The notes under the pieces are model-generated. The model was not told the DNA's origin, ran no database searches, and saw nothing but the letters and a program-made list of their open reading frames with translations. Both the position numbers and the translations under genes were made by a program. Source: Candidatus Parcubacteria bacterium (GTDB lineage: Bacteria > Patescibacteriota > Patescibacteriia > Patescibacteriales > BM507). Taken from it: DNA of 64,000 bases. Location: contig PKTH01000040.1 in assembly GCA_002869265.1 (NCBI GenBank), forward strand, positions 69,120 to 133,119, given 5' to 3'. This document shows, piece after piece, positions 2,918 through 62,058 of this stretch. The stretch's first letter is position 1; each line of letters opens with the position of its first letter.

Positions 2918-5900
2918 ATGACATATCAAGAACAACTTGAAAAAAAATTAGCCGAAGGACTTAAATCAGAAAAGTCATCTCCTTTTGGTTTCTTTATTAC
3001 TCACTTTCGTTTTACTTATCTTATCCTAATAATAATAACTATTTTTGGATTTTACTCAATTTCCTCTCTTCCCAAGGAAGCGAACCCCGAGGTAAATGTC
3101 CCCTACGCAGTTGTAAATACAATATATCCCGGGGCTAATCCAACAGATGTAGAAGAATTAATAACCGACAAGTTAGAATCGCGAATAAAAAACCTAGATA
3201 ACTTAAAAAGATACACCTCTGGGACTGGAATTGGTATTTCAACTATCTTTGTTGAATTTGAGGCAGGGGTAGATATCGATAAATCTATTGAAGATTTAAA
3301 AGATGCCGTTGACCTTGCCAAGCCAGAACTCCCCGGTGAAGCAGAAGACCCAATGGTCTCTGAAATTTCCTTCTCAGATTTTCCTATTGTCACCTATTCT
3401 TTAGTCGGTGATTTTTCACTGGTTGAACTAAAAAAGTCGGCTGATTTTTTACAAGAGGAATTTGAAAGCATCAGAGATGTTTCAAAGGTAGTTATTTTAG
3501 GTGATCTTGAAAAAGAGTTTCGGGTTGAAGTCAGCCAAGACAAACTGGCAAATTTTGGAATTTCCATGGGACAAATTGCTAATGCGATCTCTCTAAATAA
3601 CTTCAACCTCCCTAGCGGCAACATAGAAGTAGAAGGCTTTAAATATAATGTTAGAGTTAAAGGAAAATTTGAAAATATTGAAGATCTTAAGAATATCGTT
3701 ATCAGGACAAGTTCAGAAACCCCTATCTACTTAAAAGATATTGCCAACGTAATAGACACCTACAAAGAAAAAACAACAGAGTCTCGAATAGGCTTCAAAG
3801 ATGAGCTTCCTAGAAACACAATCTCCCTACAAGTTTACAAAAAAACTGGAGGAAATATCTTAAACATAGTTCAAGGAACTCAAGACAAAATAAACGAATT
3901 AACAAATGCTGGTAAATTTTCTGATGACCTTAAAATCCAAAAAACCAACGACAACGCTGTGTTTATTAAAGAAGACTTAAGAACCCTAGGAGGAAGTGCT
4001 GTACAAACAATGATTCTTATTACTATTATCCTGATGTTTGTCCTAAGTACTCGAGGAGCCATTATCACTGCCCTTTCAATTCCTTTTGCCTTCTTAATAA
4101 CTTTCACAGTTATTTACCTCCAAGGCGGAACCCTAAATAGTTTAGCTTTGTTTTCATTGGTTATTGCTCTTGGTTTGATGGTGGACAACTCTATTATTAT
4201 AATTGAAGGGATTAGTGAATATACAAGCAAACACGGAAAAGGAGTTTGTGAATCAGCCCTGCTCTCAGTCTGGAACTATAAGTGGCCAATAATTGCTGGA
4301 ACCATGACTACCGTTTCTGCATTTTTGCCGATGCTTCTAGTCTCCGGAATAATGGGTGAATTTATCTCCACCCTACCAAAAACTATTTCCGCTGCTCTAA
4401 TTTCATCTCTTTTTGTAGCTCTGGTCATCATCCCTACCCTAATTACCAGATTCATGCATGACAAAACAAACGGAGATTCAGGGGGATCGCAAAGAGACAA
4501 AAAAAGACATCAACGCGTAGCAAAGGTAATGGGATATTTTCAGAATCTATATGAAAAACAACTAACAGAAATCCTCCCTAACAAAAAGAAAAGGAGAAGA
4601 GTAATTAAAACAGCTTGGCTAGCTTTTATTATCGCTGTTTTAATTCCATTTTTTGGCATTCTAGAAGTAGAGATGTTCTCCCCGATTGATAACGACTATG
4701 CGGTCGTAAATATTTCCCTGCCCGTAGGGTCTTCTCTTGAAAAGACCAAGGAAATAACCGCTCAAGTCGAAGCTGTGGTTGATAAGATCCCTGAACTAGA
4801 CAACTATGTCACCAACCTTGGGACCTCAGCCTCTGTTGGAATGACTGACAGCACTTCCATGGGTGGATCTTCGGATAACTCTCACCTATCTTCTATTACT
4901 GTTAATTTCACAGACAAAGATAAGCGAAAAAGAAAAAGCTATGAAATTTCTGAAGTCCTCAGAAATGAACTTAAAAATTTTAGTCAGGCTGAAGTAAAAG
5001 TAGAAGAGATAGGAGCCGGACCTCCAACAGGTGCCCCGATAGAACTTAGAGTGACTGGTACAGACATGAAAGAACTATCACTGGTTGGTGAAGAGGTAAA
5101 AAATATTATCAGAAACATAAACGGAACAATAAACGTAACAGACAACATTCAAGATTCAACAGGAGATTTTGTCTTTACTGTCAATAAGCAAAAAGCAAAC
5201 TTCTACGGACTAAGCACAGTAGAAGTGGCTTCAACTATTAGAAGCGCCATATACGGACAAAAAGCTTCTGAGATCAATATTGATGGTGATGATGTTGATA
5301 TCACCATTACTTATGATGAGGCTAAATTTAAAACTATTGATGATATCGAAAATATTCTTTTGTTTTCGCCAAGTGGACAGAACGTAAAGCTAAAAGAAGT
5401 AGTAGACACTCAGATTGAAGCATCTGTCCTAGCCATCGCCCACAGAGACGGTGATAAGGTTATCACGATTAGATCAGATATAGAACCAAACGCTAACCTC
5501 CAAAATATACTTAAAGAATTTGATCTAAAAATAGCGGAACTTACCCTGCCAGAAGGCTATGCGGTTGATGTTGGCGGAGAGGTTGAAGATATTGAACAAT
5601 CATTTAGGGAGATATTTCTCTCTATGATATTGTCTATTATTCTTATAACTATCATTTTGGTATTGCAGTTCAACTCATTTAGACAACCGTTTATTATTTT
5701 GTTCACCCTCCCTTTGGCGGTGATAGGTGTTATTGCGGGGCTAGTAATACTAGGACTTCCATTCTCATTCACAGCTTTCCTGGGAATTGTTGCTCTGTCT
5801 GGAATAGTTGTAAATGATGCTATTGTTCTTATTGATAAAATAAATAAGAACGTTGATCTTGGAATGGAAATGGTCCCGGCAATTATTGAAGGAGGCAAGG

Positions 5901-21893: not shown

Positions 21894-22053
21894 GGGATAA
21901 ACCCCAACACCCGAAGACGCTCAAACACCTATACAAATTCACGTTTTGGCTAATATAAATAATTATTTGCATCAAAACACTACCCTCTCCCATGTCCTCT
22001 AAGCAGCAAGCCGGAAATAAAAAACTTATGGCACTTGCCATAAATTTTCTATG

Positions 22054-22124
22054 TCGGGGTGCCGGGAATCGAACCTGGACTATACGCACCCCATGCGCAC
22101 GTACTACCACTATACTACACCCCG
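22054..22124 (-). tRNA. tRNA-Pro (anticodon GGG)
   Basis: Hand-folded cloverleaf. Acceptor CGGGGTG/CACCCCG with C1:G72 and A73 (a bacterial tRNA-Pro hallmark). Anticodon stem TGCGC/GCGTA with loop AT-GGG-GT. T-loop TTCGATT. No encoded CCA. Confidence 0.85.
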
Positions 22125-61208: not shown

Positions 61209-61844
61209 TTAATTATTATTTTTCACTTCTCTGTTTTGCTTCATTTTGCTAATAAAATAATTTATGTATATAACAAAAGAAGACGGCACTAAAAAATAAC
61301 TGATTTTATCATTGTTCGCAATATCTTCTATGGAATTAATAAACTTATATACAAAAGCCGATCCAATAATTAAACAAAAAACCACAAAGGTTTTTTTAAA
61401 ACGATCAGGAATATGTTCTTTTGTTTTTATAAAAAACCAGAACAAAAATGACAATAAAAGAACTGCTAAGATAAACACTGACATTACTCCAGCAAATGAT
61501 TCATTAACCATCTCACTGGAATCACTAATAATAAATCCCTTAAAAAAGTTTTCTGAAATAACTGAAATAAGAAATACTATAAACCCGCTCCAAACTAAAA
61601 TATTAAAAATTTCACTATCTTTTCCATTCATCTTAAGTCTTATAATCGCAAAAACAAGAAGAGATACACAAACAAAGCCCATGAAAGCACTTGAATAGAT
61701 ATTTTTTTCATTTATTATCTCGAAGGCAAGTCCTGTCAAAAAAAACATCAAATAGAATCCGCTAAGAGCATAGGCAGGCATCATTGAAAGATAGCTCCAA
61801 ACATTTGAAAAGTTTATTGTATTTTTAACCTTAGGTTTTTCCAT
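61209..61844 (-). CDS. Polytopic membrane protein of unknown family (211 aa), first gene after the T-box leader
   Basis: About 6 hydrophobic helices. No family motif recognised. Confidence 0.55.
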   Translation of the reverse strand: MEKPKVKNTINFSNVWSYLSMMPAYALSGFYLMFFLTGLAFEIINEKNIYSSAFMGFVCVSLLVFAIIRLKMNGKDSEIFNILVWSGFIVFLISVISENFFKGFIISDSSEMVNESFAGVMSVFILAVLLLSFLFWFFIKTKEHIPDRFKKTFVVFCLIIGSAFVYKFINSIEDIANNDKISYFLVPSSFVIYINYFISKMKQNREVKNNN

Positions 61845-61856
61845 ATTTTTATTATA

Positions 61857-62024
61857 ATTAAAAAATCTCGTTCCTATAATCCAAAATTAATTGAATTACT
61901 AGAACGAGATTTCCCGCGGTTCCATCTAGTTTTCCCATTACTGGGACGCCTTGATTTATGTAACTTATCTCTTTTGAGAACAGGGTGCCAATCTCCCCGC
62001 GTAGCTACAAATTAAATTTTCAAT
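61857..62024 (-). promoter_or_regulatory. T-box riboswitch leader (Gly-type) with terminator/antiterminator
   Basis: The minus strand contains AGAUGGAACCGCG (T-box core). Antiterminator: CUAGA (61929..61925), 7-nt bulge UGGAACC (61924..61918), GCGGG-AAAU-CUCGU, then UCUAG (61903..61899). The competing terminator pairs AAAUCUCGUUC (61912..61902) with GAACGAGAUUU (61873..61863), followed by a U-run. A Stem III-like CCCA-GUAA-UGGG hairpin is present, and there are GGC triplets at 61989..61987 and 61950..61948. Confidence 0.7.
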
Positions 62025-62030
62025 ATCTTC

Positions 62031-62058
62031 ATTATACTTTTTTTTGTGCTTTTGTCAA
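62031..62058 (-). promoter_or_regulatory. Near-consensus sigma70 promoter TTGACA-16-TATAAT
   Basis: On the minus strand, TTGACA is at 62058..62053 and TATAAT at 62036..62031, directly upstream of the T-box leader. Confidence 0.6.

Follow-up and report, generated by a model that had tools for sequence, protein, structure and literature searches.

Introduction

How little RNA might suffice for a T-box riboswitch to read which tRNA it meets and whether that tRNA is charged? The question is raised by a short leader on the minus strand of a Candidatus Parcubacteria metagenome-assembled genome (MAG), situated upstream of the operon that contains glyS, the gene for glycyl-tRNA synthetase (GlyRS), in the 64,000 nucleotides (nt) of contig PKTH01000040.1 (positions 69,120 to 133,119) that were analysed here and are called the window throughout. 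T-box models hold that the pairing of the specifier with the tRNA anticodon needs a platform for the tRNA elbow, Stem II, or both, and that the platform gives the speed required to act ahead of RNA polymerase (PMC7583486, PMC10482949). The window leader and at least 15 relatives have neither the elbow platform nor Stem II, a double absence seen in no described class. Judged from its sequence and those of its relatives, the leader is very probably a tRNA-Gly-responsive T-box transcription attenuator with a minimal decoding hairpin that controls the glyS operon.

The sequence anatomy, conservation, helix covariation, promoter position, alternative terminator and gene context of the leader are directly established. 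A first-pass annotation made from the letters of the window had proposed a glycine-type T-box in a non-Firmicute genome, and that proposal holds, the host being a Candidatus Parcubacteria MAG with GlyRS encoded downstream. It understated the case, since the leader belongs to a conserved family rather than being a one-off and Stem II is lacking as well as a regular Stem I.

A T-box discriminator domain with an alternative terminator

The 3' half of the leader holds the T-box core AGAUGGAACCGCG at 61927-61915, and both this core and the antiterminator CUAGA/UGGAACC/GCGGG-AAAU-CUCGU/UCUAG are present as the first-pass annotation had read them. Between helices A1 and A2 lies a 7-nt bulge with 5'-UGGN-3', one of the general criteria for a T-box. 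The GNRA-capped hairpin upstream, which had been called Stem III-like, aligns as Stem III to the Rfam T-box model RF00230 at high posterior probability and covaries among relatives; both T-box flanks are present around it (AGGCG-UCCCAGUAAUGGGA-AAA, 61951-61930) and are conserved in the family. The arrangement RRRNG-Stem III-AA is a conserved T-box discriminator motif (PMC7778990, PMC7583486).

The 3' strands of A2 and A1 are reused as the 5' strand of an intrinsic terminator, so that terminator and antiterminator are mutually exclusive. This exclusivity and the U-run had been predicted correctly, whereas the predicted stem length of 11 base pairs (bp) had not: the minimum free energy (MFE) fold gives a terminator of 15+9 bp at -26.8 kcal/mol, compared with -9.4 kcal/mol for the antiterminator. 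T-boxes generally have a terminator much stabler than the antiterminator, and the window leader is alike in this. A simple terminator scan with a loop limit of 8 nt passed over it. In each of the 16 family members a counterpart of this terminator, at -20 to -31 kcal/mol and with five or more residues in its U-run, overlaps the 3' strand of the antiterminator; the distal terminator stems differ in sequence between members.

A decoding module reduced to one short hairpin

The promoter had been described as near-consensus; TTGACA-16-TATAAT in fact agrees with the consensus at every one of its 12 positions (62058-62031) and is the sole perfect match in the region scanned. Transcription is predicted to start at about 62025-62023, some 7 nt past TATAAT, which gives a leader of about 165 nt. 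The 172 nt downstream of the promoter fold at -53.1 kcal/mol (z = -6.6), and none of 200 shuffles folds as well.

Between the start and Stem III, the decoding module consists of a 6-bp hairpin within a 51-nt three-way junction, in which helix P1 (UGUAG(CU), 62009-62003, paired with (AG)UUACA, 61965-61959) encloses the specifier hairpin and a second small hairpin, P3. A reduced, non-canonical Stem I with GGC-A in the 9-nt loop of GCGGGG/CCCUGU had been suggested from the window alone, and this hairpin is conserved, with compensatory changes, in 15 relatives. P3 is located where Stem II would begin, yet it has only 4-7 bp and neither an S-turn nor a pseudoknot; its loop sequence is unconserved, and the hairpin is missing from the simple-hairpin half of the family. 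In the window, the 33 nt from the specifier hairpin to Stem III are made up of the 12-nt P3 hairpin, the 3' strand of P1 and the single-stranded linker.

A second GGC (61950-61948) was also considered as the specifier, having been listed before as GGC-G at 61950-61947. It was rejected, being the conserved RRRNG purine flank of Stem III, and it reads GGU, GUU or GAU in relatives.

Detection with the Rfam T-box model

Searched at the gathering threshold, the whole window gave no T-box match with RF00230, only a tRNA-Pro(GGG). With permissive filters on 900 nt, the same model matches 61897-62055 of the minus strand at 41.6 bits (E = 1.2e-7), so that the T-box match expected from the first reading was obtained, but well under the gathering score of 93. 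In that alignment Stem III and the antiterminator are placed at posterior probabilities near 1, at least 51 nt of Stem I are deleted, and the rest of the Stem I and Stem II parts of the model is likewise deleted or is spuriously placed on the promoter. Canonical glycyl T-boxes without Stem II (L032, L071 and L142) score 61.5-76.2 bits (Rfam 15), likewise below 93. Given that such canonical Class II glycyl leaders are themselves sub-threshold, the gathering score is a weak criterion of membership. The compact leaders score 25.7-41.6 bits with RF00230, about 30 bits under the canonical glycyl leaders, a gap attributable to the missing Stem I. As a separate matter of annotation practice, threshold-based use of Rfam would overlook ordinary Class II glycyl T-boxes too.

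A conserved family of compact leaders

GlyRS loci were taken from reference genomes, from metagenomes and from contigs encoding the nearest relatives of the window's GlyRS. They include 15 more leaders built in this way (L001, L006, L081-L083, L162-L170 and L172), whose GlyRS proteins are 67-84% identical to that of the window and which come from Parcubacteria- or Moranbacteria-type MAGs and from metagenomes. A TTGAC-N15-19-TAnnnT promoter stands at the same relative position in 13 of the 14 leaders checked, and the predicted start lies 0-15 nt ahead of the hairpin or of P1 across leaders. The apical loop is 8-9 nt long, or 6 nt in L172, and reads AGAUUGG[C/A][A/G] in 11 of 13 aligned leaders; the variants are (G)UUUGGCU (L001/L083), UUUGGCAG (L006), GAUUGGAA (L170) and GUGGCA (L172). 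The linker AAAUYAAG[G/U]YG is conserved across the family, with its RRRNG end reading AAGGCG, AAGGUG, AAGUUG or AAGAUG. Stem III ranges from 5 bp to more than 100 nt and is followed by AAR, and the UGGA of the bulge is invariant in all 16 members (UGGAACC, or UGGAAAC in L082). Start codons lie from 15 to more than 400 nt past the U-run.

Two sub-architectures can be distinguished. The three-way junction of P1, specifier hairpin and P3 is found in the window, L162-L165, L169 and L172, and a bare hairpin is found in L166-L168, L081-L083 and L170. [quoted passage not shown] Directly beneath the hairpin of L001 there is a canonical T-box GA/K-turn pattern (AGC-GUU-GA...GA-GCU), which marks the compact hairpin as a Stem I truncated at the Specifier Loop. 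Insertions occur in Stem III of L081, L083, L162-L164 and L170 and in helix A2 of L006 (about 150 nt); because of the latter, the L006 leader is missed or split by both Rfam and the family model.

That model, a covariance model of the family, was seeded on four simple leaders, with subsequent realignment by Infernal; whole-leader MAFFT alignments, in which the variable Stem III and linker were misplaced, were discarded. With it, all compact leaders but L172 and L006 reach 40-119 bits (71.3 for the window) and canonical glycyl T-boxes only 25-32 bits, and there is no other match in about 870 kb of loci, about 85 other loci scoring nothing. For L172 (24.7 bits, discriminator only) and for L006, whose match is broken up by the A2 insertion, membership was decided from the sequence itself. 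In the model-fitted alignment of 13 leaders, 99.2% of cells pair, compared with 34-55% when partners are slid by 1-3 columns, and 11 of 19 pairs are changed on both sides; none of 500 shuffles reaches the observed values. Compensation is found in helix after helix: four of the five modelled pairs of the specifier hairpin are changed on both sides (96.9% of cells pair), all four pairs of Stem III are compensatory with 100% pairing, and A1 is compensatory at 3/5 pairs, the compensation being seen in L001. Pairing in A1 and in the near-invariant A2 is likewise 100%, and the expectation that homologous leaders would keep the antiterminator pairing is thus borne out.

Because the 13-leader alignment was fitted to the model, the three-way junction was checked apart, on a plain MAFFT alignment of six leaders. 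There, 95.6% of cells pair and 12 of 15 pairs are compensatory, P1 being paired throughout with all five of its pairs changed on both sides. Given a MAFFT alignment of six leaders and no further aid, RNAalifold returns the same three-way junction with its 9-nt apical loop and 11 of 17 pairs compensatory.

Several loci deserve separate mention. In L006, the A2 insertion (3703-3860) is a stretch of about 150 nt, A/U-rich, in the A2 loop and is reminiscent of the stem Sa insertion of staphylococcal glyS T-boxes; a second UUGGCA in this leader was ruled out as a specifier, since it sits within Stem III. L121 was matched by the family model and was rejected as a member, since its internal Specifier Loop (AGUA) and GGUGAAAG apical loop show its Stem I to be intermediate. 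This low-GC glycyl T-box (1440-1600) has AGUA...UUUGGCA, a short upper stem and no AG bulge, lies upstream of a GlyRS 49% identical to that of the window, and may represent a step between canonical and compact glycyl T-boxes. The GlyRS of L172 is 71% identical to that of the window, one source labels the locus 'Acholeplasmataceae bacterium', and its contig has insertion sequence (IS) and transposase genes; L172 either is a wrongly binned contig of the Candidate Phyla Radiation (CPR) or hints at an exchange between CPR and Mollicutes/Firmicutes. In L163 (2760-2800) and L164 (130-170) the T-box promoter is closely preceded by a long perfect palindrome, AAAAAGAATTACGTAATTAATTACGTAATTCTTTTT, which resembles a terminator that works in both directions and separates the glyS leader from the operon upstream.

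The putative specifier and tRNA-Gly

The apical loop has GG without exception, followed by C in 13 of the 16 members and by A in the remaining three (L162, L163 and L170); both versions are glycine codons, and they match the isoacceptors GCC and UCC, which are common. Between the codon and the closing G-C pair stands a single base, mostly a purine, as in canonical Specifier Loops. Internal complements of the loop codon were sought in 14 leaders and found in none except L006, so that the loop should be free to pair in trans. Immediately before the codon, 15 of 16 compact leaders have UU, and three canonical glycyl T-boxes have AA or AC.

A search of 160 loci for tRNA-Gly found one, the tRNA-Gly(GCC) of L127, which belongs to a different CPR-like (Peregrinibacteria-like) lineage, the GlyRS of this locus being nearest to those of Peregrinibacteria loci. 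This tRNA has U73 and an anticodon loop UUGCCAA, complementary to UUGGC(A). The invariant UGGA bulge predicts a U73 discriminator, and U73 is generally the discriminator of bacterial tRNA-Gly. In nominal duplex energy, GGC:GCC amounts to -2.6 kcal/mol and UUGGCA:UGCCAA to -6.8 kcal/mol; pairing of the extended kind with tRNA-Gly would be consistent with these features. In L127 itself two tRNA genes, one of them the tRNA-Gly(GCC), stand directly upstream of glyS (4730-4881), on a contig without a T-box, so that the synthetase gene adjoins the gene of its substrate.

A proposed two-contact mechanism and its alternatives

In the proposed mechanism, the nascent leader would first fold into the three-way junction, in which the GGC of the 9-nt apical loop would pair with the anticodon of tRNA-Gly(GCC), and the discriminator domain would then hold that tRNA by its 3' end, with UGGA pairing to UCCA. 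Were the tRNA uncharged, the weak antiterminator would be stabilised and transcription would read through into the two membrane protein genes and glyS; were it glycylated or absent, the stabler terminator would form and transcription would stop at the U-run. We infer tRNA binding, charge discrimination and compensation for the missing contacts from the anatomy and conservation of the leader. Recognition appears to rest on two contacts only, with the anticodon loop and with the acceptor end. Having a glycine codon of G and C only may help to make up for the missing contacts, and such a codon has been argued to explain the lack of Stem II in glycyl T-boxes (PMC11404447). Two further candidates for such compensation are extended pairing, in which the UU that precedes the codon and is specific to this class would pair with A37-A38 of tRNA-Gly, and a loop-linker pseudoknot.

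Several observations weigh against a functional two-contact switch. The IDTM is considered essential in transcriptional T-boxes, for kinetic competence (Zhang 2020 review, PMC7583486), and for a truncated Stem I without Stem II tRNA binding was barely detectable (PMC7583486); in light of these results, a transcriptional switch with two contacts runs contrary to current expectation. The distribution is sporadic, the leader being absent at L002-L005, L007-L010, L084-L087, L091 and L171, whose GlyRS proteins are 62-71% identical to that of the window. In the window the gap between leader and glyS is about 850 nt and holds two orphan open reading frames (ORFs), and a tRNA-Gly sought in the window was not found, the only tRNA being tRNA-Pro. 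Further, all GGN codons specify glycine, so the variation at the third base fits a glycine specifier but is no proof of one.

It is unlikely, on balance, that the T-box is not truly a two-contact one and that a loop-linker pseudoknot, P3, the Stem III insertions or a protein supply the missing contacts. The pseudoknot candidate is a hypothetical pairing of loop GAUU (61993-61990) with linker AAUC (61956-61953), and GAUU/AAUY complementarity is indeed present in all 11 leaders with an AGAUU loop, L001 having GUUU with AAAC; yet no change on both sides occurs in the aligned set, where the columns are too invariant for it, chance matches are likely in an A/U-rich linker, L083 is uncompensated, L172 is without the linker, and the linker of the canonical L142 also has AAUC. 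P3 adjoins the specifier hairpin as Stem II adjoins Stem I in Class III, with zero linker (PMC10482949), and the Stem III and A2 insertions parallel those of platform-less translational T-boxes (PMC7583486), but none of these occurs in L166-L168 and L082, the minimal leaders, and the loop of P3 is unconserved.

That the hairpin is no specifier at all, so that the leader would sense only the 3' end of a tRNA or be a tRNA-independent attenuator whose loop binds something else, is very improbable. Isolated short Stem I hairpins do bind tRNA very weakly in vitro (PMC7583486), and the 5' half of the loop (AGAUU) is more conserved than the display of a codon would require. Such a leader would leave unexplained why GG[C/A] stands upstream of GlyRS in every member, at the canonical place one base before the closing pair, why a Stem I K-turn motif lies beneath the L001 hairpin, and why the codon of 13 among 14 leaders has been left without an internal partner, with the loop free; the discriminator alone, moreover, gives no amino-acid specificity beyond the discriminator base. 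Hardly credible is the notion of a decaying relic, a glyQS-type T-box transferred from Firmicutes that no longer functions, or does so only as a constitutive, partial terminator. The sporadic CPR distribution, the orphan ORFs between leader and glyS in the window and the Acholeplasmataceae label of one GlyRS relative (71%) might be read in this way, but promoter, hairpin, linker motif, Stem III, bulge and terminator are all kept at 67-84% GlyRS identity, and the many compensatory substitutions in every helix point to purifying selection on structure rather than to decay. A tRNA-Gly-responsive attenuator therefore remains the preferred explanation.

The glyS operon and its surroundings

The features of the leader and of the operon that it precedes are collected in Table 1.

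Table 1. Coordinates of the leader elements and operon genes in the window
Feature	Coordinates	Strand	Basis
Sigma-70-type promoter: TTGACA (62058-62053), 16-nt spacer, TATAAT (62036-62031)	62031..62058	-	12/12 consensus
Decoding module, three-way junction: P1 enclosing specifier hairpin and small hairpin P3	61959..62009	-	MFE fold; RNAalifold
Ultrashort 'Stem I': GCGGGG (62000-61995)/CCCUGU (61985-61980), 9-nt apical loop AGAUUGGCA (61994-61986)	61980..62000	-	Covarying, 13 leaders
Putative specifier codon GGC (glycine); U61991 and U61990 before, A61986 after	61987..61989	-	GG invariant; downstream gene is GlyRS
P3 hairpin UCUC-AAAA-GAGA, zero linker to specifier hairpin	61968..61979	-	95.8% paired, 3/4 pairs compensatory
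Single-stranded linker UAAAUCAAGGCG, with RRRNG motif (AGGCG, 61951-61947) at its end	61947..61958	-	Conserved AAAUYAAG[G/U]YG in family
Stem III UCCCA-GUAA-UGGGA, then AAA (61932-61930)	61933..61946	-	RF00230 alignment, high posterior probability; 4/4 closing pairs compensatory
Antiterminator: A1 CUAGA (61929-61925)/UCUAG (61903-61899), bulge UGGAACC (61924-61918), A2 GCGGG-AAAU-CUCGU	61899..61929	-	RF00230 alignment
Intrinsic terminator: 5' strand is the reused A2/A1 3' strands (AAAUCUCGUUCUAG...), U6 run 61865-61860	61860..61915	-	MFE fold
First operon ORF: predicted membrane protein, 211 amino acids (aa)	61209..61844	-	ORF list
Second operon ORF: small predicted membrane protein, 56 aa	61029..61199	-	ORF list and sequence; no family match
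glyS: dimeric (alpha2) glycine--tRNA ligase, 458 aa	59629..61005	-	NF003211 606 bits, TIGR00389 508 bits

The synthetase is of the dimeric alpha2 type and not the two-subunit glyQ/glyS pair, so the glyQS that the first-pass annotation had placed at the end of the operon is to be replaced by glyS. It is identical to P0001, 'glycine--tRNA ligase [Candidatus Parcubacteria bacterium]', and its nearest relatives come from MAGs labelled Parcubacteria, Moranbacteria, Falkowbacteria and Buchananbacteria. The 211-aa protein has no Pfam or NCBIfam match, and when its homologues were sought in 5.8 billion proteins the sole match was itself, 'hypothetical protein C0584_05595 [Candidatus Parcubacteria bacterium]'; the idea that the leader regulates a transporter family accordingly finds no support in that search, the ORF being an orphan. 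A promoter scan between leader and glyS found nothing promoter-like except two weak 9/12 matches.

In two near relatives, L161 (720-1178) and L162 (2513-2989), with GlyRS 87% and 84% identical to that of the window, a flavodoxin-like gene replaces the orphan membrane ORFs, and in L162 the T-box lies farther upstream, ahead of a VF530 gene. Gene content between leader and glyS thus differs among near relatives, which implies that the position of the leader in the operon and its cargo genes are variable.

Two further RNAs were noted. The tRNA-Pro(GGG) gene at 22053-22124 of the minus strand is the sole tRNA gene in the window, and a DUF3800-II RNA (RF02961, 68.9 bits, above the gathering score), unrelated to the T-box, is encoded at 1329-1398 of the minus strand in L002, a Falkowbacteria MAG.

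Implications for minimal tRNA sensing

A family that is conserved, covaries and carries a terminator, yet possesses neither form of reinforcement, directly challenges the rule that specifier-anticodon pairing in T-boxes must be reinforced. In the leaders L166-L168, moreover, nature provides constructs of about 100 nt with which to study how little tRNA recognition and charge sensing require. T-box regulation is also documented here in the CPR, where it is overlooked by threshold-based Rfam annotation; no report linking T-boxes with CPR, Parcubacteria, Patescibacteria or Saccharibacteria was found in the searchable literature, to which this negative is limited.

More broadly, and tentatively, the compact leaders might constitute a fifth T-box architecture, a transcriptional tRNA sensor of about 100 nt without elbow platform or Stem II. 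In this proposal, which we regard as possible rather than probable, the loss would be compensated within the loop, either by a helix of 5-6 bp between UUGGCA and U33-A38 of the tRNA (UGCCAA, in which A37 is normally unmodified) or by a loop-linker pseudoknot stacking under the codon. If this were true, the compact leaders would be the minimal natural solution for reading tRNA identity and charge.

Comparison with known T-box classes

The class definitions used here are drawn from PMC7583486 and PMC10482949. In the described systems specifier-anticodon pairing is reinforced by the IDTM at the distal end of Stem I, by the S-turn of Stem II, or by both: Class I has a long Stem I with IDTM together with Stem II; Class II is glycine-specific, with a long Stem I with IDTM and a single-stranded linker; Class III has a short Stem I with the specifier in its apical loop, needs Stem II for function and is mostly translational; and Class IV combines an intermediate Stem I with Stem II (all PMC10482949). 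A 2024 survey of glycyl T-boxes describes idiosyncrasies of K-turn and Stem II, always with a long Stem I that carries an AG bulge and an apical loop (PMC11404447).

With Class II, the Bacillus subtilis glyQS type, the compact leaders share glycine, the GGC specifier, a linker replacing Stem II and an intrinsic terminator, as well as the discriminator domain RRRNG-Stem III-AA and a UGGAACC bulge with UGGA for U73. The likeness ends at Stem I, which in Class II runs to about 90 nt and comprises a K-turn, a Specifier Loop that is internal and has an S-turn (AGUA/GAA), and an IDTM that stacks on the tRNA elbow and is reported to be indispensable. The window instead has a 6-bp hairpin (5-7 bp in the family) with an apical codon, no AGUA/GAA and UU before the codon, and the K-turn of Class II is found in the family only in L001, the window having a three-way junction in its place. 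A platform is in fact impossible in the compact leaders, because transcription begins at the hairpin or just ahead of it.

With Class III, exemplified by ileS of Nocardia farcinica and Mycobacterium tuberculosis, the shared features are a short Stem I without IDTM and an apical specifier followed by one purine. The primary description of the ultrashort Stem I is said to be that of Sherwood et al. 2015. Class III is isoleucine-specific and actinobacterial and mostly uses a Shine-Dalgarno sequestrator, whereas the compact leaders are glycine-type, come from CPR and use an intrinsic terminator; and where Class III has a Stem II with S-turn and IIA/B pseudoknot, the compact leaders have nothing more than some 22 nt of linker or a hairpin of 4-7 bp. 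The apical loop has 5-6 nt in Class III (PMC10482949) and 8-9 nt in the compact leaders, with 6 nt in L172. Some compact leaders also have insertions in Stem III or helix A2, as do platform-less translational T-boxes (PMC7583486). The compact leaders thus combine a decoding hairpin like that of Class III with a linker like that of Class II and with transcriptional control, a combination that is outside the published four-class scheme.

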